Shown piece by piece: positions 1,785 through 36,270 of a DNA stretch of 64,000 nucleotides. Below the pieces are notes generated by a model. It made no database searches. It had not been told where the DNA came from and worked only from the letters and a program-made list of their open reading frames with translations. The stretch is from Convolutriloba macropyga (Eukaryota). The translations under genes were made by a program, and so were the position numbers. The stretch is taken from the NCBI RefSeq assembly GCF_964194025.1, contig NC_134468.1, forward strand, positions 68,386,001 through 68,450,000, written 5' to 3'. Numbering within the stretch: position 1 is the stretch's first letter; each line of letters starts with the position of its first letter.

Positions 1785-1912
1785 TGTAACACGTATATAA
1801 AAAAAATGTACGAAAAACCTTGGGTTTCAAGGTTCAAGATTTAATTTAAAACTTGATTTATTACCTGATTTTTGGCTGACACAACTTTGATAGGTGTCAG
1901 AAATGAAAATAG
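1785..1912 (+). repeat. 5' LTR, truncated (joined directly to an RT fragment)
   Basis: 1785-1912 aligns by eye with 36228-36240 plus 37086-37200 (shared GGTTTCAAGG, TTTAAAACTTGATTTATTACCTGA, TGGCTGACACAA). Confidence 0.75.
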
Positions 1913-2455: not shown

Positions 2456-2594
2456 GACTTAAAATACAATATTGAACTTCGAATTTTTTGATTTCATGTA
2501 AAAAAAAAACAGTTTCAATAAGATTCAAAGCTGCTGAGTTAGAGTGTCGAATAGTAGTTCGGTTTTTGAACATAATTTTTGAAATAATTTGAAA

Positions 2595-3648: not shown

Positions 3649-3709
3649 CTTAAAATGGCAGTGCTTCATTTTCAGCTAGCTTTGTAAAAACTGTGGCTGA
3701 AACAGCCCA

Positions 3710-4060
3710 GTGGAGGCCTTGTTTGCAAAAATAATGATAAAAGACAAACTGATAATGGCCTTAATTGATAGTGAAATTAGTGTTAATCTTCTAAACGACA
3801 ACCTCTACCAGCAACTGGGAGAAACGAGCCACCTCAGAGTGTTCAATAAAAATATAATAGCTGCCAAAAAATGGAAAAATGCCTGTAAAAGGGTCAACAG
3901 CTATTCAGGTCCAACTTCAAAAGTTTTCATCTGAGATAACAGTTGAGTTTCTAGTGACCAAAATTGAGATAACGCTTTGTTTATTGGGCATTTAATTCTT
4001 ATATAATTTTGACTGTATTTTATAACCCCGAAAAAGCAAACACTTTTGCGGGACAATAGG
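3710..4060 (+). pseudogene. Gypsy aspartic protease, degenerate
   Basis: IMALIDSEISVNLL (degenerate LIDSG motif) and a downstream CLLG-type segment, located between gag and RT. Confidence 0.7.
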
Positions 4061-12036: not shown

Positions 12037-12138
12037 ACTTGTAATATATTGAGCGACACTCCGGGGGGTGAGGTCACCATGAATCCATGTATTAAGATTG
12101 GGTATAGCGTTGATCCAGGAGATAGGAGCCTCCTACAT
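12037..12138 (+). repeat. Remnant of the original left Polinton TIR (~100 bp)
   Basis: ACTTGTAATATATTGAGCGACACTCCGGGGGG...GTATTAAGATTGGGTATAGCGTTG is a diverged copy of the TIR terminus at 12609. Confidence 0.8.
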
Positions 12139-12608
12139 GCTCAGGCGCAAATTGCTTTTATCGTGTTTTATATTTTTTCAGTCGGTCATAATGGACCTTA
12201 TTAGCTTTCCTCGTCTTCATATCCTCTACCTTGAAGTTCAAATTGTTTATAATTTCCACTATTATGTACGATCCTCCTTAGAAAGAAGTAATTTTTCTTG
12301 TTTCTCCTTTTTTAACCTTTGGGTTGCAAACTAACACTTCTTCGCCAACTTTATAGCTCGGACGATACATACTGCGATCATAATAGGTCTTCTGGAGTTC
12401 TTGTTCGACATCCATATATTCTCGCATCAACTGATACGTCTCCGGTAGTTTCTGTTTCATTGTGAAAACATAGTCACTTGGTGTTGCATATATTGCGGTC
12501 TGTGGTGTGTTATAGATGCAGTCTATTGGTAGCAACAGTGGAAAACCCATTACCACATACATTGGGTTGTATTTTGATACACTATGGGTTGATGATCGAT
12601 AGGCCATC
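12139..12608 (-). pseudogene. Inverted duplicate of the Gypsy integrase C-terminus (copy of 31107-31577)
   Basis: ORF 12278..12655 (MAYRSSTHSVSKYNP...GFPLLLPID...YKVGEEVLV) is a slightly diverged copy of ORF 30976..31548 on the opposite strand. Confidence 0.9.
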
Positions 12609-13318
12609 AGTAGTAATATAGTGAGCGGCAGTCCCCGGGTGGTTGAGGTCCCCATGTATTAAGATAGGGTATAGCGTTGTTCCACGAGATAGGGGCCTCT
12701 CACATATATTAAGATAGGGTATAGGGTGCATGTATTAGGATTTGTAATAGAATCTACATGTTTTTATATTTGTTATAGTGGCTGACATGTATTAAGATTA
12801 TTTATGATCGCCGCCACGCATTAAGATTAGGATTAGACGCCGCCACGTATTAAGATTAGTAATAGCCGCCACAACGTATTAAGATTAGGAAGGTCGACAA
12901 TAGTATATAGTGAGCATAAGTGTTGGTATTTTAGGAGGGCATTCTTAATGGTCGAGAGGTTTAGTGTAATAAACATTGTAGATGAATTTTTATTGAAAAG
13001 AGGGGTAAAATTGAGTGTTATTTGTGTTTGTCTATTTAGTAACAGTTGTTGCCAGAGAAATGTTTACACACATTCTCATCACTCTCACTGTTTTAAACAC
13101 TCTCTGTGGGGAGTCAAGATGTTACCTCAGAATGTTGATTTTGATTTAGAGAAACATGTATGGTTTTTCCCTGGGGGTCCAAGGTGTTACCGCTGAGTGA
13201 TAAAATTGTAAACACTTTTTCGGTCAATTGTAAAGATTGTTCCCATAATGGTTTGGATAAATTGTGCACCAATTGTCTTTTGCGCTCTCATTAATTTGAA
13301 AAGGTTAAATGATAGAAA
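12609..13318 (+). repeat. Polinton left terminal inverted repeat
   Basis: Starts AGTAGTAATATAGTGAGCG and is the reverse complement of ~30303-31106 with scattered mismatches. Confidence 0.9.
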
Positions 13319-13407
13319 AAAATGAATTGAATTAGTATAAAATAACAGAGACAATATAAATGCAATAGTGAATTTTAAAGAATTGTGATATAGTACTTCG
13401 ATTAAAG

Positions 13408-16400: not shown

Positions 16401-17498
16401 CTCGCAAATTCAACAACAAAATCTCCATCTACAATGTCAATATCGTAAATAAATATGTTGTGCTTTATCGCATGTTCAACAAATACAAGATGATTGATCG
16501 ATACCCCTCTGAAGTTGATTGCGTCATGTCCAGATTTATGGAGGAATGCACTGAACAAGTTTTTTGCATTGGTGTCAAGCTCCGATGATCCATTTAAGTG
16601 AACAGCTATAGCTCGGAATAAACAAAAACAATCTTTGTAAGTCTCGCCGTAGCCATTCAATACAACACAATTCACATCTGGTCGTCTGAGTAACTGTTCA
16701 GGAAGAACAGCATCGATACCTCCCATTGGAATGGTTTTTAAGAGAGCGCAGAATATTGTTACATTGGTAGTCAGAGCAAGTCACCATTTTGTATTCCCCG
16801 CTCCTGAGCACACGTCTCCACCAAATCCATCTTTTCAATCTTGTCCTGAAGAGAGACTATGTCTTGTTTGGAACATAGTAGATAAAATTTCTCGAAGAAA
16901 GTGTTGTTTTCGTGAGCGTAGAAGTATCGATACTTGTCCGTGTCACATTTAATATAAAACCCAGAGCCAGGTTGACTTTGGCTGCACAGTTAAGTTTTTC
17001 GAATACTTCTTTCAACTTTTTATTAAGTTCATGAGAATTGAGCTTCGACAGCTTGAAGTTGAACACATGATCTTTTCAATTTGCCATCTGAGTATCGACA
17101 AAAATGTGCTGACAAGCACTAAGTTCTTGTTGCAGCTTCTCGTTGTCCTTTTCCAATTCCTCTGAATCTAGAACTTCTCTATGTTTTTCACTCGATTTTG
17201 TTCCAACTTTTGCGGAAGTTCCATGCTTTCTCCTCTTGTAATGTTGAAGAAAATAGAAACTCGGAAACTCCTCCAAGCATACAGTATACATAGTAGTTAG
17301 CTTTGTATCCTTAGGAGCGTGATGATTTGCAATGTGGTAATTCATGTCTTCTTTCTTTTTTGTACTGAAATGTGGGAATTTGGGACAAAATAAAGTCCCA
17401 CTATCACAAGACTCCTTGTGTCTTGCCATATTCTTCCTCACCACCATTTTGTTGCACTTGGTGCATTTCACTGGGAGATTTCTATCAAGAGCAGGCAT
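13408..17498 (-). pseudogene. polB: Protein-primed family B DNA polymerase with N-terminal C2H2-like zinc fingers, fragmented
   Basis: LAVFEFES (ExoI), GFNCGKYD (ExoII), GGPSIVF, DASQLYP (motif A), SSYGYQIMD (motif B), EMETDS (motif C), KGLSYFYPKR C-terminus. N-terminal CTKC...RHKESC and related C/H clusters. Confidence 0.93.
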
Positions 17499-17689
17499 TG
17501 TTTTGGAACAAGATGAAACAAATTTGGGTATAGTGACGAACAACTAATTGTGAAAAAAACAAAAAGAGAATGAAAGAAATTATTTTTGTACAATTAGGGA
17601 ACGCAGCTATGACGCATCACTCCATATATGGAAATTTATCAATTCCATTTTAGGAAGCTTGTCGTCATAACCGAACATTCTAAAACAAA

Positions 17690-18464
17690 ATGAATAAACC
17701 AATCAGATTCTTCCGTACAAATACCCTAAATATTTATGAACATTCACTTTAAATGTGCGAATTCATTCCTTGGCGTAAACTCAAAAATCTCAAATCATCC
17801 TTATATAAATTCTTAATTATTTCTGTTACATTTCATATAATTTTTCCTATTTCATCTAGATATAATCCAAAAATATACTCACAACACATTCAAACAAATT
17901 GTTCCAATTTTAATGAACTCTGCTATGCAAATTTGTGTATATCCACAATTGACAAAAATCGGTGCTCGCAAACAAATCTAGTTGTTTTGAAAATTGAAAT
18001 TAGCACATGAATGTGTTTCTGCAACAATGTTAAAGATATTGAAAACAAATATACATCAATACTCAGGAACAAATATTAACTGTAAAACTTAAGGTTATTG
18101 TCTTGGAACCTCTCAAACAATCAGAATCCCGTGTTAAAGGAACTATTCTGAAGATTAACAATTTTATTTTGTGTAATTGTTTCCTAATTTTAACTTTCTT
18201 TTACATAAACAGTGTTGCGTGAAATTTTGCTCAAAAACATACAAAAGGGAAGAAGGAATTGCCGACGCTTACAAAGTTGACGAGGTTGAGGTTGATACCT
18301 ACTTTTTCTACAATTTCTTGGGCATTTGTGTTCAGAATGGCAGAATAATCCGATTTAGTAAAAGATTTGAATATGCAAGATTTTCCATTAAAAAATTCAA
18401 ATTTGATGATTATATAACGAAACAATCATTTGATTTATCGTCAGAGATACACATTAATAAGTAA
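17690..18464 (+). pseudogene. Possible Polinton accessory ORF remnant of unknown function
   Basis: Consecutive plus-strand ORFs 17753..18010 and 18177..18464, divergent from pPolB. No motif recognised. Confidence 0.3.
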
Positions 18465-18651
18465 AAAATTTTATTTGTTTTGAATTCTCTTCCTGGTATT
18501 TTAGAACAGTACAGAAATTTAGCACAGGCGGACTGTATTCCAATTCCCGATCCCATAGCAATCACTTCGTCTGTACAAAGCGCGTTCTTTTTCCAATACT
18601 ATACACAACACAATTCTGATGGGGTAAGAATTCAATTTGGAATTCGACTAC

Positions 18652-18654
<3 letters not shown>

Positions 18655-18695
<41 letters not shown>
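18655..18695. repeat. (AT)n microsatellite
   Basis: About 20 uninterrupted AT units. Confidence 0.98.
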
Positions 18696-18697
<2 letters not shown>

Positions 18698-18796
18698 AAA
18701 TTCCGTTCCAAGTAAGGAAAACTATCCAATATTGGTTTAAAATTTAACGAAGTCTAACAAATTTTTCAGAGCTTGACATTTTTGGTAAATTTTGTC

Positions 18797-20510
18797 AATT
18801 CGTTCCCACTCAGCTATCCATATTTAGTATACAAGTAATCAAATCATGTGTTACATGTATTAGTCGAAAACTATATTTTGTGTCTTTTCACGCTTTAAAG
18901 TTCCTGTGTCGTGTATGATCATCACTTTTATAACAAATGAATTCGTTCCCACTCAGCTATACATATTTAGTATACAAGTAATCATATCATGTGTTACATG
19001 TATTAGTCAAAAACTATATTTTGTTTCTATTCACGCTTTAAAAATCCTCTGTCGTGAATGGGCATCAATTTTATAACAAATTCTTCTACATTTTTTTACG
19101 TTACAAACCTTTCATTTCCTGTTTTGGTTACTAGCGTCACTTTTTCTACAACATGTTTCCTTCTTTGTTAAGTATTGATACTAGCACATGGTCAGCAAAC
19201 GACCAACAGAACTTTGATCCGGCACAGTACTATGGTTCTACTGATATGTCGACTACTCCATCAATGACAACACCTTCCATAGAAGATGGAACAGCCCACA
19301 ATCCAATTTTGCTGACTAACGAAAATTCAACAACTCCAATCAATTCGTTCCCACTCAGCTATCCATATTTAATATACAAGTAATCATATCATGTGTTACA
19401 TGTATTAGTCAAAAATTATATTTTGTTCCTTTTCACGCTTTAAAGTTCCTGTGTCGTGAATGAGCATCACTTTTGTAACAACTTCTTCTATATTTTGTTA
19501 CGTTACAAACCTTTCATTTCCTGTTTTGGTTACTAGCGTCACTTTTTCTACAACATGTTTCCTTCTTTGGTAAGTATTGATACTAGCACATGGTCAGCAA
19601 ACGACCAACAAAACTTTGATCCGGCACAGTACTATGGTTCTACTGATATGTCGACTACTCCATCAATGACAACACCTTCCATAGAGGATGGAACAGCCAA
19701 CAATCCAATTTTGCTCACTAACGAAAATTCAACAACTCCAATCAACTCGTTCCCACTCAGCTATCCATATTTAGTATACAAGTAATCATATCATGTGTCA
19801 CATGTATTAGTCAAAAACAATATTTTGTTCCTTTTCACGCTTTAAATTCCTGTGTCGTGAATGAGCATCACTTTTATAACAAATTCTTCTATATTTTGTT
19901 ACGTTACAAACCTTTCATATTACTGTTTTGGTTACTAACGTCACTTTTTCTGCAACATGTTTCCTTCTTTGGTAAGTATAAATACTATTACATGGTCAGC
20001 AAACAACCAACAGAACTTTGATCCGGCACAGTACTAACACCTTCCATAGAGGATGGAACAGCCCACAATCCATTTTTGCTGACTAACGAAAAATCAACAA
20101 CTCCAATCAATTCGTTCCCACTCAGCTATCCATAATTAGTATACAAGTAATCATATCATGTGTTACATGTATTAGTCAAAAACTATATTTTGTACCTATT
20201 CACGCTTTAAAGTTCCTGTGTCGTGTATGAGCATCACTTATATAACAAATTCTTCTATATTTTGTTACGTTACAAACCTTTCATTTCCTGTTTTGGTTAC
20301 TAAGTCACTTTTTTTACAACATGTTTCCTTCTTTGGTGAGTATTGATACTAGCACATGGTCAGCAAACGACCAACAGAAATTTGATCCGGCACAGTACTA
20401 TGTTTCTACTGATATGTCGACTACTCCATCAATGACAACACCTTCCATAGAGGATGGAACAGCCCACAATCCAATTTTGCTGACTAACGAAATTTCAACA
20501 ACTCCAATCA
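18797..20510 (+). repeat. Tandem array of ~402-bp units inside the Polinton
   Basis: Units start AATTCGTTCCCACTCAGCTAT at ~18797 (partial), 18940, 19342, 19744 and 20109. Each long unit contains the MFPSL(L/V)SI... ORF start. Confidence 0.93.
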
Positions 20511-20614
20511 GCATTCATCCATCTAATACTCCAGCAATCTTTGAACGTTCTAGACCTTTTGGGAATGAGATTCAAAACTTGCCAGATTATGTATTGAGAA
20601 CTCTGTTTGAATAG
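20321..20614 (+). CDS. Small S/T/P-rich Polinton accessory protein (97 aa); 3'-truncated copies at 19153, 19555 and ~19957
   Basis: ATG-initiated open frame repeated across the array. Only this copy carries the ...LPDYVLRTLFE C-terminus. Function unknown. Confidence 0.5.
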   Translation: MFPSLVSIDTSTWSANDQQKFDPAQYYVSTDMSTTPSMTTPSIEDGTAHNPILLTNEISTTPISIHPSNTPAIFERSRPFGNEIQNLPDYVLRTLFE

Positions 20615-21568
20615 ATTTGAGTTTGTATGATTTTCCAGCTTCATTCGTACTGAATTTTAACAGAAAAGTTGTAGATTATATATACATTTTCCAGGTGATG
20701 TATTTAAACATTTCTTATAATATAATCTATCTTATATGAGCTTTCTTTTCTAAACCAGTTCATTAGGATATCATTAAATAAAATTTTGATTTTTTTTATT
20801 TCAGAAAGAGCATCATCAACACTCGGCATTTGACAAAAATACTTGATCCAAAATTTGATATTTAAGAAAAAACTGAGCAGAAATTTGATTTCTATGAAAA
20901 AAAACTTGAATGAAATCTCGATTTATAAGTTGTTTTAGTAAATAAAAACTTGTTATTTTGAAAACTAAAAACTCTCATTTTTTGCGTTAAATTATACTGT
21001 AAACTGAAGAAATTCAGGATAAAGTTTGCGTTTTATTGTATCCAATTGGAGTCCATTTTTCGATATTTAAACAAAAAAATTCCTAGAAAACTCGAGGTTT
21101 AACAAAAATTTTGTTGAGAAAACCCGACTTTTGTTAAAATAAGTTTTTCAAAAACCCAACATTTAACAAAATTTTCGTGAAAAAAACTCGACTTTAAAAA
21201 GAATAATTTGTTACAAAACTCAACTTGTAACAGATTAGAGGTATCAGTTTAAACATTTAGGAAAGATTGTAGAAAAATATGAAATTGAATTTTTTTTTTG
21301 ATTTTTTAGCCAAAACATAAAACTTAAACTAGGTAAATAATTGTGATGTAAATACAAATTTATTACTTTCTAATTTCAAAATATAACAGAGTTATCAATT
21401 AAGTCATGACAGTCTAACAATCAGTCAACAATTTTTATCAATTCACTCTCATATTTCGAGTTCTTAAGACGCTTAATTCTGTCTTGAAATGTGTCTTAAA
21501 TTCTCTCGTTTTTGTGCTTACATTTCTTTGTTCAGCTAGCAGTAAATGTCTCTTGAACTTTTTTCTAC

Positions 21569-21967
21569 TCAATCATTCCTTGGACACACTAGGTAACTTC
21601 TCATCTCAACAAATTTGTTCTCATAGTTGTGTTGTACTTCTCTGTCTAACTGAGTAAAGACAAGTCCTGATTCTTCCAAAATTTTAACAAAGAATTGATG
21701 TTTGTATAATGTATATAAACAATCGACTGTCTGATATAAATAGGAGAGATCTTCCAGTTTTTGTTGCCACATTTCGGTGGAGGAAGATATGAGAACAATG
21801 TGATATCGACAAGTTTTCAGGGGACAGAAACTGTTGTTTGAATCAATAACATATTCACTTGTAACAATATATGGTCTATAATCTTTAACAGATACAGATA
21901 AAAACAACGCCTTTTCACAAAATTTTTTGTAAAAGTTTGGTAAAGCCTGGCACATAACTGCTGCCAT
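21569..21967 (-). CDS. Polinton accessory protein of unknown function (132 aa)
   Basis: ATG-initiated ORF MAAVMCQALPNFYKK...CPLKTCRYH. The duplicate at 23574..23846 has a premature stop. Confidence 0.55.
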   Translation of the reverse strand: MAAVMCQALPNFYKKFCEKALFLSVSVKDYRPYIVTSEYVIDSNNSFCPLKTCRYHIVLISSSTEMWQQKLEDLSYLYQTVDCLYTLYKHQFFVKILEESGLVFTQLDREVQHNYENKFVEMRSYLVCPRND

Positions 21968-23448
21968 TATGTAAAATTATTTAGTATGTTCAAATAAGGA
22001 AATCAATTTCTTTGGAACTCAAAATCCAAATAAGATAATTAACTTATATACTATAAATGAACCCAAATTCCAAATAAGGAAATCATATTATTTAATATAA
22101 ACGAAATCAAATTCCAAATAATGAAACCAATGAAATTGTCATGCTCAATTTAAAATCTCATTTGAACTATGAATCAATTCAAGAAACAGCGGATAAAAAA
22201 AAATCGATGTTTTAGTTGTTCAAAATATTTTCGTCACTACTTCCCTCTAAATTAGTCAAAAACTATATTTTGTACCTATTCACGCTTTAAAGTTCCTGTG
22301 TCGTGTATGAGCATCACTTATATAACAAATTCTTCTATATTTTGTTACGTTACAAACCTCCAAACAGCTCCAATCTACAAACTCCAATCAGCATTCATCC
22401 ATCTAATACTCCAGCAATCTTTGAACGTTCTAGACCTTTTGGGAATGAGATTCAAAACTTGCCAGATTATGTATTGAGAACTCTGTTTGAATAGATTTAA
22501 GTTTGTATATTTTTCCAGCTTCATTCGTACTCAATTTTAACAGAAAAGTTGTAGATTATATATACATTTTCCTGGTGATGTATTTAAACATTTCTTATAA
22601 TATAATCTGTCTTATATGAGCTTTCTTTTCTAAACCAGTTCATTAGGATATCATTAAATAAAATTTTGATTTTTTTTAATTCAGAAAGAGCATCATCAAC
22701 ACTCGGCATTTGACAAAAATACTTGATCCAAAATTTGATATTTAAGAAAAAACTGAGCAGAAATTTGATTTCTATGAAAAAAAACCTGAATGAAATCTCG
22801 ATTCATAAGTTGTTTTAGTAAATAAAAACTTGTTATTTTGAAAACTAAAAACTCTCATTTTTTGCGTTAAATTATACTGTAAACTGAAGAAATTCAGGAT
22901 AAAGTTTGCGTTTAATTGTATCCAATTGGAGTCCATTTTTCGATATTTAAACAAAAAAATTCCTAGAAAACTCGAGGTTTAACAAAAATTTTGTTGAGAA
23001 AACCCGACTTTTGTTAAAATAAGTTTTTCAAAAACCCAACATTTAACAAAATTTTCGTGAAAAAAACTCGACTTTAAAAAGAATAATTTGTTACAAAACT
23101 CAACTTGTAACAGATTAGAGGTATCAGTTTAAACATTTAGGAAAGATTGTAGAAAAATATGAAATTGATTTTTTTTTTGATTTTATAGCCAAAACATAAA
23201 ACTTAAACTAGGTAAATAATTGTGATGTAAATACAAATTTATTACTTTCTAATTTCAAAATATAACAGAGTTATCAATTAAGCCATGACAGTCTAACAAT
23301 CAGTCAACAATTTTTATCAATTCACTCTCATATTTCGAGTTCTTAAGACGCTTAATTCTGTCTTGAAATGTGTCTTAAATTCTCTCGTTTTTGTGCTTAC
23401 ATTTCTTTGTTCAGCTAGCAGTAAATGTCTCTTGAAATTTTTTCTACT

Positions 23449-23846
23449 CAATCATTTCTTGGACACACTAGGTAACTTCTCATCTCAACAAATTTGTTCT
23501 CATAGTTGTGTTGTACATCTCTGTCTAACTGAGTAAAGACAAGTCCTGATTCTTCCAAAATTTTAACAAAGAATTAATGTTTGTATAATGTATATAAACA
23601 ATCGACTGTCTGATATAAATAGGAGAGATCTTCCAGTTTTTGTTGCCACATTTCGGTGGAGGAAGATATGAGAACAATGTGATATCGACAAGTTTTCAGG
23701 GGACAGAAACTGTTGTGCGAATCAATAACATATTCACTTGTAACAATATATGGTCTATAATCTTTAACAGATACAGATAAAAACAACGCCTTTTCACAAA
23801 ATTTTTTGTAAAAGTTTGGTAAAGCCTGGCACATAACTGCTGCCAT
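23449..23846 (-). pseudogene. Duplicate of the 132-aa accessory ORF with a nonsense change
   Basis: Near-identical to 21569..21967, but CAA>TAA after ...LYKH. Confidence 0.6.
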
Positions 23847-24403
23847 TATGTAAAATTATTTAGTATGTTCAAATAAGGAAATCAATTTCTTTGGAACTCA
23901 AAATCCAAATAAGATCATTAACTTATATACTATAAATGAACCCAAATTCCAAATAAGGAAATCATATTATTTAAAATAAACGAATTCAAATTCCAAATAA
24001 TGAAACCAATGAAATTGTCATGCTCAATTTAAAATCTCATTTGAACTATGAATCAATTCAAGAAACAGCGGATAAAAAAAATTCGATGTTTTAGTTGTTC
24101 AAAATATTTTCGTCACTACTTCCCTCTAATGCAAAACAGATGTGCTAAACACAAAGACCCTTTTTCTATAATGATTCAAAAGTTTTCTCTTGTAAAAATT
24201 TCTGATTAGAATTCCTTTTAAGGAAAAGTGTAAATAGACATATTTTTGTCTCACATTTTAGAAATTTGTGTGAAAACAATGATGTCATTAGCATAAAAAA
24301 AATTCTCTTTGGTAGAGGGACTTAAAATTTTAAGCAAATCATTTACTTCTCGCAGCTTACTCAAGTTACGTAAACGTCTCTCTCAAAAGTATCTCCTATT
24401 TAA

Positions 24404-25740
24404 TTGAGCCCTCCACCAATGATTACAGATTCACAACCCAAATTGGGTACTGATTCCGTCTCAATTTTTATAGATTTGGTTCTCCTCCAAACAGATTTGG
24501 GAGGTTTACTGTGTCCCAAATATATAGAAAGGGACAAAATTACTCTCAACCAATTTTTCAAGTCTTTAAAAAAGAAAAATGTGGAACATTTGAAAAGTAC
24601 CAACAACTGAGAGATGGAGATTACGAATTCAAGAAGTTTTGTCTCCCTAAGAACGATCTGCTGAGAGAATCCAGTTCAATTTGAGAAGAACCCAAAAATG
24701 GAGGATTTGCTGCAACAATGTCACAAAGCAAGAGAGATCAGCATTGGAAAAAACCGAAGACTCTACATTGCCTTTATACAGTACGTTCAGGACAATCCAA
24801 CTTCAGTTTATGTCCAGATCCGATTTGTTGCAAAAAGAGCAATGAGTTCAAGCAAGTGAGCTATGTCAGCTGTAAAATGGAAGAATTCAAGGAACTGGTT
24901 CAAAATCTTAAAGATTTCACCAATTTTGAACAATGTACATTTCAATAATAACTGCTGCGCAGTTTAATAATGTGTTTTTATACATTGGATAATAAATATT
25001 TCGTAAATTATATGTATGTGTCTTCTGAGTAAACATTTTTTTCTTTTGAAATTTTTTACTCCTAAAATGATTTGGGATATTGTATGCTCTAGAAACGTTT
25101 TCTTAAGTCTTAGAGACAAGTCAAAAGTTTTTCACGTCAGGTTGCATTACGAGCAACAGTTCATGAAGCGCAAAAGTTTCCCAATTTGGATAATTTAGAC
25201 GTAGAATCCCAAATTTTTGAACTTAGGTGCGTTATTCATAATGATATGCGCAGAACAACTCTAACATATCGTTCTGACAAACAAGAACTTTCCATTTCTC
25301 AACATTGATGGAACGGATATCAGTGGATTTTTCGTACAAAAGGGTGGTTTGAAAAAAGAAGAGTATAAAAATCTAGTAGATCAACTACCAACCCTTCTTG
25401 ACTGTATAGAAATTTACAAAAAGACTTGCATTATTTCGGACGAAACAACTCAGAGTCAATGAATATCGTTACTCTGTTCAACATTTTCAAATGTTTCGGA
25501 AGCACTGTTCCCTACGAACCAAAAACGTAAAAACTGTTTTCTTGCAGCTTTTAAAATTTGAGACCGAAATATTGATTTAAACGAAATTGATCAAAAGTTT
25601 TCTCACGGAGGAATAATTGGATATTGAAGCTCTCTCTTGGTTTTTTTCTTAGCTGTAAAAACAACAACAGACGGAGACCAGGTTATTGTTACATGCTGCC
25701 GCAAGCTCCCCAGCTCCTGTCTTCTAGGTCATATAACTGG
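24404..25740 (+). pseudogene. Fragmented Polinton accessory ORF(s), unknown function
   Basis: A run of short co-oriented ORFs (24404, 24718, 25016) with coding-like composition. No family recognised. Confidence 0.3.
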
Positions 25741-25819
25741 AATATTCTTTTGTCTCTACATCAAAGTCTGTCACCCTCAAGTTTTTAAAATACTAGATAA
25801 ATAATCATTTTTAATTTAT

Positions 25820-26302
25820 CGCAGCTAAAAAGAAGATAACTCCCGTTGTGTTTGATATTGAGTGCTTGGAGGGAACAGTTGTTAATGAGCTGGGAATTTT
25901 CAAGGACGGAATTGGGTTGGGATACACATTCCTCCCACCGAATGACTACAAGCAATCATTTCAAGCAACGTGGAAAACAAAAAATTACATGGAATCTACT
26001 GGAGTAAAGGAAAAGTTGACTACTCAGATCTTCCAAGCATAATTCATCAATAATGTTCTCCTACAACCGAATACTTTGCGAAAGGATTGGAAAATTGTAA
26101 AATTGAATCCGATTACTTATGTAAGGATGTAGAAAACTTGGACAATTTTGGTTGTCTAAAAGCCTCTAAGTTGACTTCCAACGAAGATACTATCTATGAA
26201 AGTAGTGACTGCCGCTACCGACACCAGAAAACAATGCACTGTGCGGAGAAGAAAGCTTATGCTGATGGAACTTGGGTTCCTAATTTTTTTGACAAAATTT
26301 AA
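25820..26302 (+). pseudogene. DEDD/DnaQ-fold (possibly Maelstrom-like) nuclease
   Basis: VVFDIE...VNELG, (frameshift) KLHGIYWSKG, YFAKGLENC, ENLDNFGC, CRYRHQKTMHCAEKKA. Confidence 0.6.
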
Positions 26303-26873
26303 TATTTGTAAAATTTTTTATGTACTTTAATTGCGCTGTATCGTATTACCTTTCAATTAATTTCAAAAATCATTTTATTCTTTTACAAAACATAAAAAAG
26401 TTGCATCAAAAATGAAAAAATTGAGAAAATTGAATTAATTTTTAATTTATTTTCCCTTTTTATGCTTTCTTTTATTAATTCCTATAAAGAGACAGTGTTT
26501 TGGCTATCGCTGTTGTTTGTTTCTTTTTTATGTTTAGAAGCTTATCTCATTTTTTATTTATTTACATGGCAGTCCAGTTGAAACATTTTTTCTATCACCT
26601 CAATGATAGCGTTTAAATGACTAAGCTTACAGATAAGGGATTAAATTTGGGTAATTTTGTCTTTGATGACAATAATTAAGAACGACAATCATGGAAATGT
26701 TTTGGACAGACTTGTAATAGGTCTCTAGTCGTTTTTCTGTCCCATTTTTTTGTACTTGTAATTCGGGTCTGTTGCATAGTAGCAATAGCATTGGCTACAA
26801 CGTGTAAAGAAACAACACTTTGGATTGCAATTCTTTCGAGTACAGTTGGTAATTTTTTACCTTCACCTAATTT

Positions 26874-27390
26874 ATGAACAAGATAATTTCCACAACAGAA
26901 CAAAATCTTATTTCATTGGTTGGTCCAAGCGGGTCTGCGAGATCTCATCTTATACATGAATGGTTAACAATTGGAACTTTTCAACCAGAGTTCGACAATT
27001 TGTACTACTTCTATCCATATTATCAATCTCTTTATGGTTTGATGTCCAAAGACGTTAAAAATATGAGTTTATAGAAGGTGTTGACTTTGAGTTTGTTCGA
27101 AACCTCCAGAATAACGGACCAAAGTATGTGTTAATTTTTTACGACTCTTGTGACGAGATTTACAGCTCCAAATATTTTGTTAAAATTGCATTAGCTGGAA
27201 GACATAAAGGAATTAGCACAATATAGTAAACACTATATATTTCATCAGACTAGATTAGAAAGAGATATAGAGTTACAAAAATACTCATATTGTCTTGTTC
27301 AAATCTCTTAGAGATTTGAATTAAATAAAAACTCTGAGTCAACAGTTGGGATTAGGTTCACAACTAAAAGATTGGTATTTCAAAGCATAC
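26874..27390 (+). pseudogene. A32/FtsK-type genome packaging ATPase
   Basis: Degenerate Walker A ISLVGPSGSARS, Walker B-like YVLIFYDSCDE, AGRHKGISTI and LQNTHIVLFKS. 3' end truncated. Confidence 0.85.
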
Positions 27391-27429
27391 AAAATAACGT
27401 CAAGCAGCTCGATATTTTAGACAATTACC

Positions 27430-28130
27430 CGCATTTGCAAAGCGGATGAATGAAATCTGGTGTCCTGATTTAGTTTTTATGGCTTAATTGTCAAAATTTA
27501 ATAACGGAGTAAAGTATTTATTAGTCTGCGTTGATGCATTTTCTCGTTTTGTCAGTGTTCAACCAATGAAATCAAAGTATTCTAAAGATGCTGTACCAGC
27601 TTTCAAAAAAATGCTACGAAAAAACAATGCCTCACAAAAAGTGTGGGTCGATCAAGGAACAGAGTTTGGTGGTGAATTTTGGAAATTTTGTGGACAAAAG
27701 ACAATTCAATTTTATTCAATGAGAAAAGAAACAAAGGCTGCCGTAGCTGAGAGAGCAATCAGATCTTTGAAAAACATTATTTATGGCTTCATGGAAAAAA
27801 ATGGGTATAAGTACCTTGTAAAAATCAGCTCTTTCTTAAATACAATGAATAGTAGAGTAAATAGATCTACAGACAAAGCTTCAGAAGATGTAAAAAAAGA
27901 GACTTTTTATCAATTCTTTTTTTACAAAAATCCGATCAGTCAATACAAAAAACCTCGGTATATACGATATTCCTTCTAGAAAAGAATAAAAGTCGCCGTT
28001 CACGCGTGAAATCTTGGAAGTTGTTAAAATTGCTACTTACAAATCTCCAACATACAACCTCAAGGGAGAGCAGTGTTAGGAAATACTACGAAAATTTTAT
28101 GAACAAGAGCTCTCAAAGTGTATCATTAGT
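27430..28130 (+). pseudogene. Polinton retroviral-like (rve) integrase
   Basis: NEIWCPDL, KYLLVCVDAFSRF, KVWVDQGTEF, KAAVAERAIRSLK (D-D-E triad) and a C-terminal FTREI...PTYNLK...KFYEQEL segment. Confidence 0.92.
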
Positions 28131-28131
28131 G

Positions 28132-28942
28132 ATGAACTCTTTGACGGTAGAGCTGGTTTCGAACGCCTCTTTTGATTGTTATCCAAATAATACATTGAGT
28201 TCTTCTACCAATTTCCTTCTAGAACAGATTAATTTTGAAAAAGAATGGGAGGGGGCAATAACCGAACTCTCATATCCATCTTTGTACCAGAATATTACGG
28301 ATAAAATTTTTTTCTATCTAGATTCTGCAACTTCAGATACAAAACCTTCTGATTAATATACAATTGATGCAGTACTATATTCATCCAAATCTGATATTGT
28401 GAACAAAATGAACAAAAAAATTCAGTAAAGAGAAAAGTATGAGAAAACTCCAATCAAATAAAAGTCAACAGAATTACACAGAGAATATCCCTAATTCTAC
28501 CTAAAAAAACCCGTTACTAGTTATCTTCAGTACTGATCTCTGTCACGTATTTGGGTCTGAGGAAGCTGCTTACGGAATGGGAGTTTTTATGAGTGGTGCT
28601 GGACCGCATTTTACTAAATTTCCCTTCGATATTGTTCAATTTCATATTCTGATGATATACAGTGACATTGTTGAATACAGTATTTTAGGTGATACAAAAA
28701 CCGCGCTTTCGAGATGTATTCGGTTCATTTCTAAAACTAAAAAAGGAGACGTGATATCTACTGGACAATATATTAATTATCAAAACTTCCCAAACCTACA
28801 ATTTAAAAAATTTCCGAAAAATTTTTTCCACGGCATTAAACTTGAGCTCCTGGACTCATACGGTGAAAATGTTCCCTTCATTTCGGTAGGTGTAACTAGA
28901 GCCGTATTGATGTTAAGAAAGGCTTCAGAAAATCATTTTTAA
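28132..28942 (+). pseudogene. Polinton minor capsid protein (penton)
   Basis: LVSNASFDCYPNNTLSS...EWEGAITELSYP at the N-terminus and IYSDIVEYSILGDTKTAL...IKLELLDSYGENVPF at the C-terminus, both typical of Polinton pentons. Confidence 0.8.
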
Positions 28943-28959
28943 ATTAAAGTTTACAAAAA

Positions 28960-29314
28960 ACGGATGCAGACAGTGGTTTACCGTATTTTCGTGGTTATTC
29001 AAGACAAATGGCGAGAGGATTTGAAGCTTTAGCACAAACAATTGGGAGGACTGCAATTCCTTCTTTCAGACGATATGTTGTACCAGCAGCTAAAAACGTT
29101 GGTGCTGACTTGTTTGAATTAGCCGCGCCAGAAATAGAAAATGTATTAGCTGGAAGGAAAGAGTTCAAATCTGCAGCCACAGGTGTTGGAAAGAAAACTT
29201 TACCTAAACAAATAGGAGGTTGAAACCTGGAAAAAGACGTATTATTTGAAAACGCTCGCCAAAAGTCAGTCGACGTCCTCGAACTAGGAGGGACATTTTT
29301 TCCAAACTAAAATG
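28960..29314 (+). pseudogene. Small basic virion core-like protein preceding the MCP
   Basis: PYFRGYSRQMARGFEALAQTIGRTAIP resembles the conserved QRGxG-type small Polinton ORF; basic C-terminus; QIGG is a possible adenain site. Confidence 0.55.
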
Positions 29315-29472
29315 AATACGAGGTCAACAAATGATAGTATTTTCCGTTATGGACACCTTACAAATTCTTGCTCGGAGATTTTTGACAAAATTCCGGTTTT
29401 GGAACTAATTGAATCCTCCCATATTCAATAAATTTATCCCAGTACTTCATTGGATGAAATTTCAATTTGATT
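29312..29472 (+). pseudogene. Major capsid protein N-terminal remnant (~50 codons; remainder deleted)
   Basis: TNSCSEIFDKIPVLELIESSHIQ*IYPSTSLDEISI*F resembles Polinton MCP N-termini (L-x-L-F...I......P......I-E-F) at the expected position. No room for a full MCP before the protease. Confidence 0.55.
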
Positions 29473-29537
29473 GTAAGGTGACAAATCAAATCCCTCTTCC
29501 AAAGGAGCTTGCGAATTGCTGCGGAAAATTAATTGTC

Positions 29538-29936
29538 ATGGATAATCAATCTCTTCAACAAATTATTGAGCGCATTCCAGAGCTAAAATTCAAATACATT
29601 GGATCGTTTCCAGCAGATTTCATTCCAAATTAACCTAAATTCTGCTTTGCAATCTTTAACACTGCTTCGAGCAAAAAAGTTGGTGAGCATTGGATATTGT
29701 TTGCTCGACTCAACAGAAATTACTATTATGCGGATTTTCTGGCTCGATCAATAACACATTACAAAATTTTATGTAGAAAGTACGAAAAAATTATACATCG
29801 ACCACCTCAGAAGAAGCAAAATTTTTGTGGATTCTACGCAATTTTTGCGGCTGTTCAACTATTTAAGTTTTTCCAAATCAACTTGAACAATATTCATGAT
29901 GTGCACGTGTTAAACTTTATAAGTAACTATATGTAG
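29538..29936 (+). pseudogene. Adenain-like cysteine protease
   Basis: YIGSFPAD, AIFNT...GEHW (His), YYAD (Asp), QKKQNFCGFY (Gln/Cys); one internal stop at ~29631. Confidence 0.88.
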
Positions 29937-30236
29937 AATTATTCATTTTGATATTTTATAAGCTGAAGTTAATAAAGTCGATAGTATATGTTTCTCTTTA
30001 CTGTTTTTCGTGAGTTTTTTAAATTTTTTTATTGAATTTTATTAAACAATCGACTAAGTGTACTTTAATGTTGGTTTTAATTTAAACAATTTATTGTAAA
30101 TATTAGAGTAATTTTGTATTTTGATGCTCACAATTTATACTGTCTGTTGTTACGTACTTTTTAATTCAATTTTTTCCTTTTGTTTAACATCTTTTTCAAA
30201 CAATGTACAAATGATAATGCATATATGCATGTATTC

Positions 30237-30307
30237 AGCAAAATGGCGCAGCGGGAGCGCGGTGGGCCCATAACCCAGAGGACGGTAGATCAAAAATATC
30301 TCTTCTA
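30237..30307 (+). tRNA. Initiator tRNA-Met(CAT)-derived sequence, probably a pseudogene
   Basis: AGCAAAATGGCGCAGCGGGAGCGCGGTGGGCCCATAACCCAGAGGACGGTAGATCAAAAATATCTCTTCTA is collinear with animal tRNAi-Met. A-box and GGG-CCCATAA-CCC anticodon arm are intact, T-arm and acceptor stem are decayed, and TTTTT follows at ~30315. Confidence 0.8.
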
Positions 30308-31106
30308 TCTGAACTTTTTCCGATTATTGAGCTCGCAAAAGACAATTGGTACTTAATTTATTCAAACAATTAGGGGAACAACTTTTTCAATTGACCGAAA
30401 AAGTGTTTACAATTTCATAACTCAGCGGTAACACCTTGGACCCCCCCCATAGAAAAACCATACATGTTTCTCTAAATCAAAATCAACATGCTGAGGTAGT
30501 ATTTGACCCCCCACCGAGAGTGTTCAAAACAGTGAGAGTGATCGGAATGTGTGTAAACATTTCTCTGAAAACATCTGTTACTAAAAAAACAAACACAAAC
30601 AACACTTAATTTTACCCCTCCTTTCAATAAAAGTTCATCTTGAATGTTTAATACACTAAACCTCTCGACCAGTCAGAATGCCCTTCTAAAATACCGACAC
30701 ATATTGTCGCTATATACTATTACCAACCTACCTAATCTTAATACGTTGCGTTGGCTATTCCTAATCTTAATACGTGGCGGCGGTAATTTTTAATCTTAAT
30801 ACGTGACTGCGGCTATTCTTAATCTTAATACGGGGCGGCGATTATTCCTAATCTTGATACGTTTCCGCGGCTATTCCTAATCTTAATGCATGGTGGCGAC
30901 CATAATTAATCTTAATACATGTCAGCCGCTATAACTAATCTTAAAACATGTAGATTCTATTCCAAATCTTAATACATGCACCCTATACACTATCTTAATA
31001 TATGTGAGATGCCCCTATCTCCTGGAACAACGCTATACCCTATGTTAATAATTGGGGACCTCACCCCCCCCCCCCCCGGGGGACTGTCGCTCACTATATT
31101 ACTACT
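30303..31106 (-). repeat. Polinton right terminal inverted repeat
   Basis: Ends ...CGCTCACTATATTACTACT; inverted match to 12609-13318. Confidence 0.9.
30731..31050 (+). repeat. Array of TAATCTTAATAC motifs with ~29-bp period within the TIR (mirrored at ~12655-12890)
   Basis: About 10-11 copies of (T)AATCTTAATAC(G/A) separated by variable GC-richer linkers; about 8 reverse-complement copies in the left TIR. Confidence 0.85.
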
Positions 31107-32015
31107 GATGGCCTATCGATCATTAACCCATAGTGTAACAAAATACAACCCAGTGTATGGGGTACTGGGTTTTCCACTGTTGCTACCTATAGACTGCATC
31201 TATAACACACCACAGTCCGCAATATATGCAACACCAAGTGACTATGTTTTCACAATGAAACAGAAATTACCGCAGACGTATCAGTTGATGCGAGAATATA
31301 TGGATGTCGAACAAGAACTCCAGAAGACCTATTATGATCGCAGTATGTATAGTCCGAGCTATAAATTTGGCGAAGAAGTGTTAGTTTGCAACCCAAAGCT
31401 TAAAAAAGGAGAAACAAGAAAATTTACTTCTTTCTATGGAGGATCGTACTTAATAGTGGAAATTTTAAACGATTTCAACTTCAAGGTAGAAGATGTAAAT
31501 CTGAGGAAAGCTAATAAGGTCCGTTATGACCGACTGAAAAAAATATAAAACCCAAGAAAAGCAATTTGCGCCTGAGCTTCAAGCGAAACGAAAAACCACA
31601 GTTAAGGAGCAGAAGAATACCAATTTGAACAGCTCAGACGATGACGATAAAATTGAAATAGAATCATCTACAGACAGTGAAAGCAATCTGAAAACAGAAA
31701 ATCAATCCGAAGCTAAGGATGCTAACAATTTACTAAATGTTACAAATCACACTTCTGAAAATGAAGCTAAAGAATCAGAAAAAAAACAACAGAGTACACT
31801 GGGACAAAACATCAAAAACAAAAACTCAAAAACCAGACAAAAACCACAGGAATCTAATAATAAAACAAAAAAGTACTGAAGAAAGTACTAATAGGGATCA
31901 TAAGGCACCACAAATGGCTACAAGGTCTAGCAGCCGATTAAAATCGGTGCCTGAGAAATTAAAGAATTACTTTACTGAGCAAGATGAAGAGTATTTTAGC
32001 AGCATGTGTTGTTAG
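31107..32015 (+). pseudogene. pol: Gypsy integrase C-terminus (GPY/F-like domain) and low-complexity tail
   Basis: MAYRSLTHSVTKYNP, QKTYYDR, YKFGEEVLV, KFTSFYGGSYLIVE, KVRYDRLK, then an acidic/Ser-rich tail and TRSSSRLKSVPEKLKNY. Confidence 0.88.
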
Positions 32016-33406
32016 CTAAAACCACAGTTGGATTGCTACAGGAGTATTAGCCATCGTGTTTTAGCGAAAGACATAGAGTATTGCGATATTAGCAGCCAGG
32101 AAACTGATGATTTTTTTGTTTCAGCAAAATCCAGAAAGAAAAAACAGAATCCAAAAAAAGGCGAGTTTGACCGGAGCATCGTGTGATGGAGTATCACTAT
32201 GTTTGTCTCTGGCATTTCTAGCCACTTTTGTTTCTCCATCACATTGTATCAAATTAAACGGTTATGATTTTGACAGTATCGTATCAACAATTATCTATTC
32301 CCTAGATTACAGTACAAACGGTGATAACAAGATTCGAGTATCAAAAACAAAAGAAGAAGGTAATTTGTTATATGCTGACATTCAGCCTGAGATGAAACTA
32401 AAATTTTTCATATATGAACCGGCATATACAGCGTCAGCACTTTAAAAAAGCAACGTATCTGACGATGTCGTTTTTTTCACAGAAAATTCAAGACTACTAA
32501 AATCAATACACCCCTTAAATGAGGGAGTTTGAAGGAACATTTGGCAGAACAAAAGTTTTGCTATACCAGGTTTTGGAGATAGGACATTGAAAAACAACAG
32601 AGTACACTGGGACAAAACATCAAAAACAAAAACTCAAAAACCAGACAAAAACCACAGGAATCTAATAATAAACCAAAAAGTACTGAAGAAAAGACTAATA
32701 GGGATCACAAGGCACCACAAATGGCTACAGGGTCTAGCAGCCGATTAAAATCGGTGCCTGAGAAATTAAAGAATTACTTTACTGAGCAAGATGAAGAGTA
32801 CTTTAGCAGCATGTGTTGTTAGCTAAAACCACAGTTGAATTGTTACAGGAGTATTAGACATCGAGTTTTAGCCAAAGACATAGAGTATTGTGATATTAGC
32901 AGTCAGGAAACTGATGATTTTTTTATTTCAGCAAAATCCAGAAAGAAAAAATAGAATCCAAAAAAGGCGAGTTTGACCGGAGCATCGTGTGATGGAGTAT
33001 CACTAAGTTTGTCTCTGGCATTTCTAGCCATTTTTCTTTCTCCATCACATTGTATCAAATTAAACGTTTATGATTTTGACAGTATCGTATCAACAATTAT
33101 CTATTCCCTAGATTACAGTACAAACGGTGATAACAAGATTCGAGTATCGAAAACAAAAAAAGAAGGTAACTTGATATATGCTGACATTCAGCCTGAGATA
33201 AAACTAAAATTTTTCATATATGAAGCGGCATATACAGCGTCGGCACTTTAAAAAAGCAACGTATATGACGATGTCGTTTTTTTCACAGAAAATTCAAAAC
33301 TACTAAAATCAATACACCCCTTAAATGAGGGAGTTTGTAGGAACATTTGGCAGAAAAAAAGTTTTGCCATACCAGGTTTTGGATATAGGACATTTAAAAA
33401 CAACAG
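31782..33406 (+). repeat. ~807-bp tandem duplication covering the pol tail and env N-terminus
   Basis: The 11-bp microhomology AAAAACAACAG occurs at 31782, 32590 and 33396 and bounds two near-identical copies. Confidence 0.95.
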
Positions 33407-34838
33407 GTCGGTAACTGCAACAATTTTACGACAGGCCAGCGAATCCACTAATGTCAAAGTGCACAGTCAAAGCTTCATGGCAAAAAATGGACGCGAAGGC
33501 GCTATGTATGCAGAGCCTGTAGGGTGGGTTTCACCTAAAGGAGAAAAATTTATTGGAAATGTGGTAACCAATGCATAATTTTACATCGGAACAACTTGGT
33601 GGAAGCTGCTACAAAGAAACCTAACAAATTTTAAGGATCGCCTAAGTTTCTCGAAAACCGTTCTCATCAAAACCACATATTTTGAAGACAATTTAGTAAG
33701 CCTTTTGGAAAATAAAGGTGAGCAGACAATCAGACGATAAAACCTTTATTAAGGAGGACCCTGCAAAAATTTTTGGTAACAGCAAGACCAATTTTATCAG
33801 AGGGAAAATTTTACACAAAAACAAATTTGAAGATTTTGCATTACAAAACTTAAAGGAAAAAGCAATTAATTTGTGTGGACAGCATGACAGCATGTGAAAA
33901 CAGCCGGAATTCCAGGTGTTTTTTAATCCGAGGAAAGATCAGAGCTGAAAACAGTTAATCTTAAAATAACCATGGAAATGTTTCTTTCAAGCGTTGTTGA
34001 CACCTTTAATTTCGAAATTCTCAAATAGAGAGAATTTTTTTCTGTGAAAATTAGAACGCTCCAATGCGACATTCAACGACTGGAAATTCAAACAACATTG
34101 GACAACGATCGAACAACCTTCTTCGAGAAAGGAACTCACGCCGAAAGAGCAGGATCTGTGTTATATGTTCATAAATGTGCCAAGATGGTAGCAACAATAA
34201 CTTAGCTTCCTCTTTTGCACCCTAATACAAAATTCTTTATCATAATTATACAACCGCTGCATGCAACCCACTGTACTCAAATGTTGTCAAATCAGAAGAC
34301 GGCTGTCAAAACAGAAGATTAGAGAAACGCTGAAGAATTTCAATCGTGAGATATATCAGTGGTCGATGAATAATAACTTAAATGTAAGTGATGAAAACCT
34401 GCATCGCAGCCTTTTCTCCATATCAGACGTAAAACAGAGTCAAATTGCTCGAACAATTCGCCATATTGATAAAGGAATTATCACTCGGGAAGCATTCGAG
34501 ATTCCGATGGAAAACACTGTCATGAAAATTTTATTCACTGGGACGACCAGTTCCAATAACAATTTTTCTAACAAATGAAATAACAATTTTTTGGAATTTA
34601 GGGAACCGAAAGCTTATAGATTTGGTTAGAAGCGAAAGACATTGCTGTGTCGGTCTTAACAGTATACCTCATTTTTAATATTGTGAAAAATTTCCCTAAA
34701 TTGTTCATCTATTTAGGATTGGCTATTAATGGAGCGTCTTTGCAACAACTATCGCGGAATCTTGACCCCATAACGGTAACACATTTGTATAATCAATTAC
34801 TCAAATTATTAAATAAACGCCGAGAACAAAAAAAATGA
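32160..34838 (+). pseudogene. env: env-like ORF resembling class III (gB/chuvirus G-type) fusion glycoproteins
   Basis: Hydrophobic signal-like segment VSLCLSLAFLATFVSPSHC; IKLNGYDFDSIVSTIIYSL; RTLQCDIQRLE; GTHAERAGSVLYVHKCAKMVATI (34131-34200); ACNPLY; several N-x-S/T sequons; hydrophobic TM-like stretch at ~34640-34740 and a basic tail. Confidence 0.7.
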
Positions 34839-34916
34839 TTGAAGAAAAAGAGTCCTTAAAAGAGTCAGTTTTAAAAAGAGTTGTTTTAAAAAAAGAAGGA
34901 AAAAGAAAATTAAGTT

Positions 34917-35155
34917 ATTTTGAGTTCAAGACCAAAAAAGGAAGGAACGTCTCGAGTTTGAGAACAAAAAGTTGTCTTGAGTTCAAGACCAAAAAAAGAA
35001 GAAAGGGCAACTGCTCGATTTTGAGACCGAAAAAATGTCTTGAGCTCGAGACCGAAAAATAATTGTTTTGAGTTCAAGACCAAACAAAAACGGGAACGTC
35101 TCGAATTCGAGACCAAAAAAAGAAAAGAAAAAAGGAAAAATCTTGAGTTCAAGAT
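34917..35155. repeat. Array of 8 palindromic TCTYGARYTCRAGA-like sites separated by A-tracts
   Basis: For example TCTTGAGTTCAAGA (~34975), TCTTGAGCTCGAGA (~35038), TCTCGAATTCGAGA (~35099); most are followed by CC(A/G)AAAA. Confidence 0.85.
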
Positions 35156-35189
35156 TGAAAATATCGAGAAACTTTAGAAGTAAAAAAGA

Positions 35190-36100
35190 TTTTTTATCCG
35201 ATATAGCGGGTAACGAGATTCCACAGATTGATGAATATTAGTACTACATGCAAGAATTGTAGAAATTTATTTCCGAGATTTCTCCGGGAGTGTATCGAGT
35301 GGAGTCTTATCTGTCGCGGACTCGGAAAGTATATACGCTAGAACATCTGGCACCAACCAAATTTCGGTCGCGTGCTATGCAGACTGAAGTGGAACTGCAA
35401 AACCAGTGCTTAAAGTTAGAGAAGATGAAGAGTACTAACACTTCAGAAAGACCTCGTCAAGATTCGACAAGAACTAGATAACTGTTGCAACAAGACCAAA
35501 GAGGCATCAAAAGAGGCTTTGGTCAAATGGAGCGCCGAATATGAGGCGTTACGAGATACTTTAAAGGCAGCAGCAGCGAAATGCTGAAAAGGAGCAATCC
35601 ATTGAGGTATTGAAGCAAGAGTTGGCTGATTTGAAAGTCAAAGCTGCTAAGAAAAACAAAGCCATCGAAAATATGAAGAAATTGAATGACCAATTGAGGT
35701 CAGAGTTTGAGCACCTGGAACACTTTTATCAGTATTTGGCCAACGAATGCCGAAAAAAAGATTATCTCATTGATCGACAAAAGAGTATTCTTAGAAACGA
35801 AAAAGCCAAAACAAAGGCCACGGAGGAATGTTTATCCGAAATTTGGAACAAAAACATTAGGAACTGGCCTGCAACGCTATAGGAGGTTTTGTTGGTAAAA
35901 TGTTCTGCTTCAAAAGATCAGATCAAGGAACACTACCACAAAATGAGCATGTTGACGCACCCTGATGCTGGTGGAGACGAAAAATTCTTCAAGACCATCA
36001 ACCGTGCGTATCAAATTCTGACAAATGATGCGGCACGGGAAGCGTACAACATATTTGGACTTGACGAGGCAGAAAAGTTATGAACAAACAAAACTGTTGA
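35190..36100 (+). pseudogene. Accessory ORF: coiled coil followed by a DnaJ (J) domain
   Basis: Heptad-rich KQELADLKVKAAKKNKAIENMKKLNDQLRSEFE, then in frame TL*EVLLVKCSASKDQIKEHYHKMSMLTHPDAGGDEKFFKTINRAYQILTNDAAREAYN, a complete J-domain with HPD. The TAG at 35880 is probably a mutated Tyr codon. Confidence 0.85.
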
Positions 36101-36214: not shown

Positions 36215-36224
36215 AAGAGGGGGG
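36215..36224 (+). promoter_or_regulatory. Polypurine tract of the LTR element
   Basis: AAGAGGGGGG three bases before the TG start of the 3' LTR. Confidence 0.75.
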
Positions 36225-36227
36225 CAC

Positions 36228-36239
36228 TGTCACACGTAT

Positions 36240-36270
<31 letters not shown>

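Follow-up and report, generated by a model that had tools for sequence, protein, structure and literature searches.

A broken Ty3/gypsy env copy in Convolutriloba macropyga, its predicted class III fusogen relatives and a conserved J-domain gene downstream of env

Whether an env-like region in the genome of Convolutriloba macropyga represents a class III fusogen carried by a Gypsy element, and how such a gene would be expressed and acquired, is the question raised by the locus studied here. It lies in a stretch of 64,000 nt (GCF_964194025.1, NC_134468.1, forward strand 68,386,001-68,450,000), referred to below as the window. A preliminary description had proposed a single env ORF at 32160-34838 with class III signatures, independently captured by the element and possibly translated as an extension of pol. 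With good confidence, the stretch is a dead env copy of a multi-copy Ty3/gypsy element whose siblings encode a predicted class III fusogen, likely from spliced RNA. The novelty lies in a conserved and selected DnaJ-domain gene in the same element, the class III env itself being of a known kind.

For the window copy, all of the motifs named earlier were found in the order given, namely GYDF at 32260, YSL at 32296, LQCDIQR at 34059, AGSVLYVHKC at 34149 and CNPLY at 34262, with a hydrophobic stretch within the ORF 34620-34838 coming last. However, the single ORF did not hold up: the region runs through three frames with many stops, the longest stop-free run within 32160-34838 is about 120 aa, and the span runs across a duplicated env 5' end. 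The tandem duplication concerned (Table 1) has 784 of 817 bases alike. Compared with an unbroken sibling, the second env copy contains 17 indels inside aligned blocks, of which 15 shift the frame, as well as many stops and, near 34216-34220, an additional gap that spans about 58 bases. None of the three env pieces of the window matched PF24664 when X was placed at stops, and the family assignment of the window copy depends on siblings that are 82-87% identical to it in DNA. As the window env is broken, its former identity is readable from these siblings only; the copy is dead and partly duplicated.

Further rearrangements were observed around this env. A Polinton-like insertion of 19 kb, with a 6-bp target duplication (12031-12036 and 31107-31112), lies between the 5' half of the element (1778-12036) and the 3' half. 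This Polinton/Maverick-like insert contains an integrase, an adenoviral-type protease and 29-bp repeats in its terminal inverted repeats; its right end, together with about 470 bases of flanking pol, recurs in inverted orientation inside its left end (12139-13317), and a repeat with a period of 402 bp occupies 18795-20510. A 93-bp insertion with an 8-bp direct repeat is present in the pol tail at 32004-32096 and again at 32810-32903, and is older than the tandem duplication, since both halves carry it. Letters related to this insertion form loose ends at about LTR position 413 in sequencing-run contigs, and the insertion is suggestive of a small mobile element.

Table 1. Features of the element copy in the window (positions are those of the window)
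Feature	Position	Strand	Basis
5' LTR remnant	1778..1913	+	81% to young-copy LTR over 139 bases
Element 5' half: gag/pol pieces, broken, with internal tandem duplications	1920..12036	+	blastn 78-90% to young copy; repeats D1-D9
Polinton/Maverick-like insertion, foreign to the element, splitting the integrase gene	12037..31106	.	Junctions, terminal inverted repeats; rve and adenoviral-type protease matches
pol 3' end: integrase C-terminal domain and low-complexity tail, broken	31107..32141	+	tblastn 51-76% to sibling pol end; PF22938 in sibling
817-bp tandem duplication of pol tail and env 5' end	31782..33406	+	31782-32600 / 32590-33406, 96% identity
env copy 1, truncated: hydrophobic leader, GYDF..YSL	32143..32600	+	67% to sibling env residues 2-163
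env copy 2, near full length, with stops, frameshifts and a gap; predicted class III fusogen gene	32950..34873	+	tblastn to sibling env; sibling PF24664 match and predicted gB/chuvirus G fold
Spacer of short imperfect tandem repeats, env to fourth ORF	34875..35170	+	Siblings have it too
Fourth ORF, broken: coiled coil and C-terminal J-domain with HPD	35182..36083	+	PF00226 E 9e-15 on window; 66-74% to sibling
Polypurine tract	36215..36227	+	Sequence; matching place in siblings
3' LTR, broken up by a TTG run and an unidentified insert at ~36240-37085	36228..37508	+	blastn 75% to sibling LTR, 37086-37508

Searching the same genome by DNA yielded 40 scored candidates with 72 matches; of the 20 loci returned, five retain an unbroken env frame (677 codons; 666 aa counted from the first ATG). 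The flanks of these siblings define an element of about 9.9 kb with 430-bp LTRs that encodes gag, pol, env and a fourth ORF, with pol read in a different frame. The LTR pairs are 97.9-99.8% alike in four of the five copies examined, the fifth being without its 5' part, and three of four copies are flanked by a 4-bp target duplication. A PBS-like site that starts with TGG and a polypurine tract (PPT) occupy the expected places, the PBS-like 11-mer occurring 830 times versus 146 for a control, a count that points to no particular primer tRNA; the young LTRs (loci L021-L030) start with TG and end, one base before the PBS-like site, with TA instead of the usual CA. Gag contains a zf-CCHC domain, and pol shows the gypsy-type order PR-RT-RH-IN (PF13975, PF00078, PF17919/17917, PF17921, PF00665, PF22938). 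On the basis of the LTRs, target duplication, PBS and PPT sites and gag-pol domains, the element is a Ty3/gypsy LTR retrotransposon. Unbroken gag and pol occurred together in none of the five copies examined, leaving present activity no more than a possibility. Two subfamilies were distinguished, a young one with LTRs 93-100% alike and an old one with LTRs 70-75% alike to the young; the window copy falls in the latter. There are also internally deleted derivatives (L082, L085, L089, L096), in which the fourth ORF and LTR are retained and env is lost, pol or gag running straight into either the fourth ORF or the env end.

The proposal that this Gypsy element carries a class III env resembling gB and chuvirus G was supported in the unbroken siblings, by profile and by predicted-structure comparison alike. 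Sibling env matched the chuvirus-type fusion glycoprotein family PF24664 over residues 307-615 with an E-value of 1.8e-10 and 39.9 bits (cut-off 27), which was also passed by all five full-length outside homologues of env (27-30% identity). An initial structural model, built from 6 sequences, was of low quality (pLDDT 43). Compared with 48,161 chains, it nevertheless had herpesvirus gB at all five top ranks (Z 6.0-7.6). A second model, restricted to the ectodomain and built from 36 sequences, reached a pLDDT of 61, with values of 70-95 over a large part of the N-terminal beta region and mainly below 50 in the C-terminal half. For this ectodomain model, Foldseek ranked herpesvirus gB first in the PDB (E 7e-8), with GP64 and Thogoto G next, and in BFVD the top matches were glycoproteins of chu-, qin- and xinmo-like negative-strand RNA viruses (E 2e-16, 12-15% identity). 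Ranks 1-11 of a VIA-align comparison with 48,161 chains were occupied by gB, rhabdovirus G or thogotovirus G (Z 7.3-4.3); the top match (Z 7.3) had an rmsd of 14.1 over 240 residues, and an HCMV gB fragment (Z 5.1) an rmsd of 2.5 over 75 residues. The predicted protein has a gB-like domain I/II fold followed by a long central helix, in a model with low global TM-scores (0.12-0.38) and VIA Z-scores below 8. Sequence searches of solved structures with env, as a single sequence and as a profile, gave nothing below an E-value of 0.8, the best score in the ESM Atlas (0.88) was a lead only, and no relative was found in the viral contigs searched.

Other properties of env were assessed from the siblings and their homologues. 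Judged by hydropathy, the ectodomain sits between a leader and a C-terminal hydrophobic helix; the Kyte-Doolittle values are 2.07 at the N-terminus and a weak 1.56 at the C-terminus, versus 2.1-2.5 in homologues. The hairpin tips expected as fusion loops appear polar by eye. Eight cysteines are invariant in an alignment of six sequences, and one is offset. The N-terminal cysteine of the chuvirus-type GYDC motif is absent, and the earlier suggestion that GYDF is a decayed form of it was contradicted by the copies: phenylalanine occupies the position in 28 of 28 motif matches (from partly overlapping loci) and isoleucine in 5 of 5 distant homologues, so that GYDF is native. The Env protein would enter the secretory path, where its C-terminal helix would anchor it, and would trimerise and let particles fuse with another cell, as has been proposed for errantiviruses.

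For the expression of env, translation as an extension of pol was not sustained, since siblings have their own env ATG, which overlaps the pol stop in a five-base stop/start arrangement and lies in a different frame. A shared frame in intact copies had been suggested as a check, and the overlap with its frame change was found in 17 of 19 loci; the junction is missing from the remaining two. In the old subfamily, 13 loci included five without the junction and one that could not be mapped, and four of the seven mappable copies have the overlap; among five further young copies it is kept in two and differs by one base in three. Both window copies lack it and differ from each other at this place, and the frame shared by pol and env in the second window copy is thus attributable to decay. 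About 20 bases upstream of the env ATG there is an acceptor-like site consisting of a branch point, a pyrimidine run and AG, kept in nine of nine young copies, five of eight old copies and both window copies, although its location within pol-coding DNA means that this conservation is not independent of pol. A donor-like site is present in the non-coding leader before gag, with no ATG upstream, in all of the copies reaching that far (four young and two old; 10 sources examined). Spliced env RNA has been reported in Drosophila errantiviruses and in Tor3a, according to the parts of these reports that were available (PMC13669377, PMC4402516). Env is probably translated from its own start codon on a spliced RNA, in which the leader donor-like site would be joined to the acceptor-like site before the env ATG. 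GT..AG ends were seen at none of 15 joints listed, with a further 294 outside the listing, in four runs of contigs of unknown kind from one study, a result with no bearing on splicing.

Two other modes of expression were considered. Influenza B BM2 and caliciviruses provide precedents for termination-reinitiation, and Env might be made in this way on genomic RNA at the pol stop/env start overlap, the five-base form of which is kept by both subfamilies. This is nevertheless unlikely, because matching donor-like and acceptor-like sites are conserved, because reinitiation behind the low-abundance Gag-Pol product would yield little Env, and because splicing is the env mode reported for the Drosophila errantiviruses and Tor3a cited above. 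An internal promoter for env or for the fourth ORF, which the spacer repeats before the latter could hold, has a precedent in Oikopleura Tor3b/4b (PMC4402516, as far as its available text goes) and would fit the conservation of the repeat spacer; it appears equally improbable in view of the splice-like signals upstream of env and of an acceptor-like AG noted by eye upstream of the fourth ORF as well. Splicing thus stays the preferred mode for env.

For the fourth ORF, which lies inside the LTRs between env and the PPT and encodes about 285 aa, a short N-terminal region is followed by a long coiled coil and a C-terminal J-domain. The sibling sequence matched PF00226 with 61 bits (cut-off 27.8), and among solved structures 37 J-domains were matched, the best being Sis1 (E 2e-10). 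Its matches number 130 among 128 scored candidates, with 58-100% identity, and the loci picked by this ORF contain env in 46 of 50 cases and an LTR in 49 of 50. Among the matches, the HPD motif is retained in 32 of 37 from the young subfamily and in 9 of 14 from the old one. Both env and the fourth ORF are under purifying selection, the net dN/dS between subfamilies being 0.11 (0.07-0.15) for env, 0.09 (0.05-0.15) for the fourth ORF and 0.06 for the integrase, as obtained by pairwise Nei-Gojobori estimation with within-group distances subtracted, a bootstrap over codons only and copies chosen by search score. Within groups, dN/dS is 0.55-0.79, as decay would give. The synonymous distance between subfamilies is larger for the fourth ORF (0.70) than for env (0.195), and similarity between them is lower in the 3' module (77-80% versus 81-87% identity), which together suggests that the 3' end was swapped with a more distant lineage.

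Homologues of the fourth ORF (57 found, 49-95% identical) are all unnamed. No longer relatives were present among 7,792 candidates, which is weak evidence, and the ESM Atlas gave no useful match. An SH3-like N-terminus resembling the integrase C-terminus was considered and rejected (hhalign probability 0.2). About 14-20 codons before the first ATG are open (L028:2793-2861; window 35182-35250) and lie downstream of the acceptor-like AG, and by eye the subfamilies differ there mostly at third positions; the protein may start upstream of this ATG through splicing. The product would be a soluble cytosolic adaptor, the J-domain of which likely recruits host Hsp70; the chaperone could be brought to Gag particles or their RNA and act in particle assembly or uncoating. 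It is very unlikely that the ORF is host DNA carried along with no function for the element, even though no relatives were found outside this element family, given that its net dN/dS stays at 0.09 over a synonymous distance of 0.70, its position is fixed in both subfamilies and HPD is retained. No report of a J-domain gene in LTR elements was found in the accessible parts of the literature searched, the coverage of which did not extend to subscription journals and Repbase.

For the origin of the pol-env pair, an independent capture by this element is not supported, in view of two lines of evidence. Two metagenome contigs carry env relatives (31% identity) directly after a gypsy integrase, and this integrase (L103) scores 93 bits to the pol of the present element versus 49-51 bits for the other families of the genome; as the arrangement is shared by outside contigs, the pol-env pair is older than this family. 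Furthermore, the available portions of Chary and Hayashi (eLife 2026, PMC13524379), who catalogued 1,512 env-bearing gypsy elements, describe the pairing of Gypsy with gB-type env as widespread and ancient. Within the same genome, other env families with PF24664 account for 99 matches; gypsy pol precedes env at three of the four loci examined, and the fourth is an LTR-bounded arrangement without pol. These envs score 135-152 bits against PF24664 versus 39.9 for the env studied here. A phmmer comparison of this env with the other gB-type envs of the genome gave no match, hhalign gave a weak profile match (probability 74%, 17% identity), and the pol proteins of those families are 26-33% identical to the present one, which together places this env in a distant sub-lineage. 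That sub-lineage may have arisen by a separate ancient capture or by long divergence.

The earlier version, in which a viral glycoprotein was captured recently and independently and is translated fused to Pol, is highly improbable and its fusion part is largely refuted: the frame shared by the pol tail and env start in the second window copy, the remoteness of this env and pol from the other gB-type families of the genome and an outside protein (P0257) that runs a pol-tail-like stretch into env speak for it, but siblings of both subfamilies have a separate env ATG, the window copies disagree with each other at the junction, and the outside env relatives follow an integrase nearer to this one than those of the other families are.

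Among known systems, the HSV/gB-type errantiviruses of the above catalogue are similar in having Gypsy pol, the gag-pol-env order, LTRs, multiple copies and an env with a leader, a C-terminal anchor and a gB-like fold. They differ in that the env described here is without the GYDC cysteine and is followed by a fourth ORF with a J-domain, the term 'DnaJ' having no occurrence in the main text and seven supplements available for that study (PMC13524379). Nine short env, gag or RT motifs of the present family are absent from the supplements available, a weak test in view of their gapped representative alignments. The chuvirus/Monjiviricetes glycoproteins (PF24664) share the order of cysteine motifs and provide the best predicted-structure matches, and the cut-off of their family is passed; however, identity is 12-15%, the score is weak and the env here is carried by a retrotransposon. 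Chuvirus glycoproteins have also been described in BEL/Pao elements (Anakin) in the accessible parts of Dezordi et al. (PMC7642597). Anakin likewise is an LTR element with a chuvirus-type glycoprotein, whereas the pol of the present element matches gypsy-type models and its target duplication is 4 bp. Membership of Anakin (BEL/Pao) was rejected, as only gypsy-type Pfam domains and no Pao-specific family were found at an E-value of 0.1.

Extra ORFs other than env are known from LTR elements, such as the GDSL and DEDDy genes of bdelloid Vesta and Juno described in the available text of Rodriguez et al. (PMC5408684), in which 'DnaJ' does not occur. Like these and the aORFs of plants, the fourth ORF is an enzyme-like or host-like gene that has been captured and lies within the LTRs, at the 3' end; in those elements, the extra ORF replaces env, whereas the J-domain gene here follows it. 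The selection on this gene was described above. J-domain proteins are also encoded by viruses, as exemplified by polyomavirus T antigens and by the baculovirus protein BJDP, which contains a coiled coil. The HPD-bearing J-domain is shared with these proteins, and the coiled coil with BJDP, with no sequence relationship implied; in contrast to them, the fourth ORF is borne by a retroelement and its J-domain is C-terminal.

On balance, the family may be regarded as a 'complex' invertebrate retrovirus, that is, a Gypsy element with a deeply divergent and possibly separately captured class III env and its own selected Hsp70 co-chaperone gene. With env alone, a published class gains one divergent member. 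The J-domain gene, being under selection, points to accessory proteins of env-bearing Gypsy elements that steer host chaperones, for which DNA viruses and complex retroviruses with accessory proteins are proposed as a parallel. As the other gB-env Gypsy families of the genome have RING-finger or coiled-coil ORFs 3' of env, accessory genes at this place may be a general and overlooked layer there. Surveys that score gag, pol and env only would have missed the fourth ORF, and it may be worthwhile to re-scan the roughly 1,500 catalogued errantiviruses between env and the 3' LTR.

Several further features of the genome and the window were noted. The ORFs located 3' of other gB-type envs (L046:4253-4675, L048:4087-4581, L046:5466-6425, L044:2654-3505 and L044:4180-4638) are RING-finger-like, with a PF13920 match of 27.2 bits in one, or end in a coiled coil. 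Another gB-type env copy has no pol in the 7 kb upstream and is immediately preceded by a secreted-type ORF with a PAN domain; it is flanked on both sides by a 457-bp repeat that is 99.6% identical, and is possibly a non-autonomous env carrier (L045:5900-6559 and L045/L046 repeat 6527-6983). Near the end of the window, three repeat copies with 97-99% identity occupy 59540-63958. Outside the element, a short ORF at 38789-39082 begins like a signal peptide and repeats a cysteine pattern resembling C-x-x-D-x-D-C, and may encode a small secreted host peptide.
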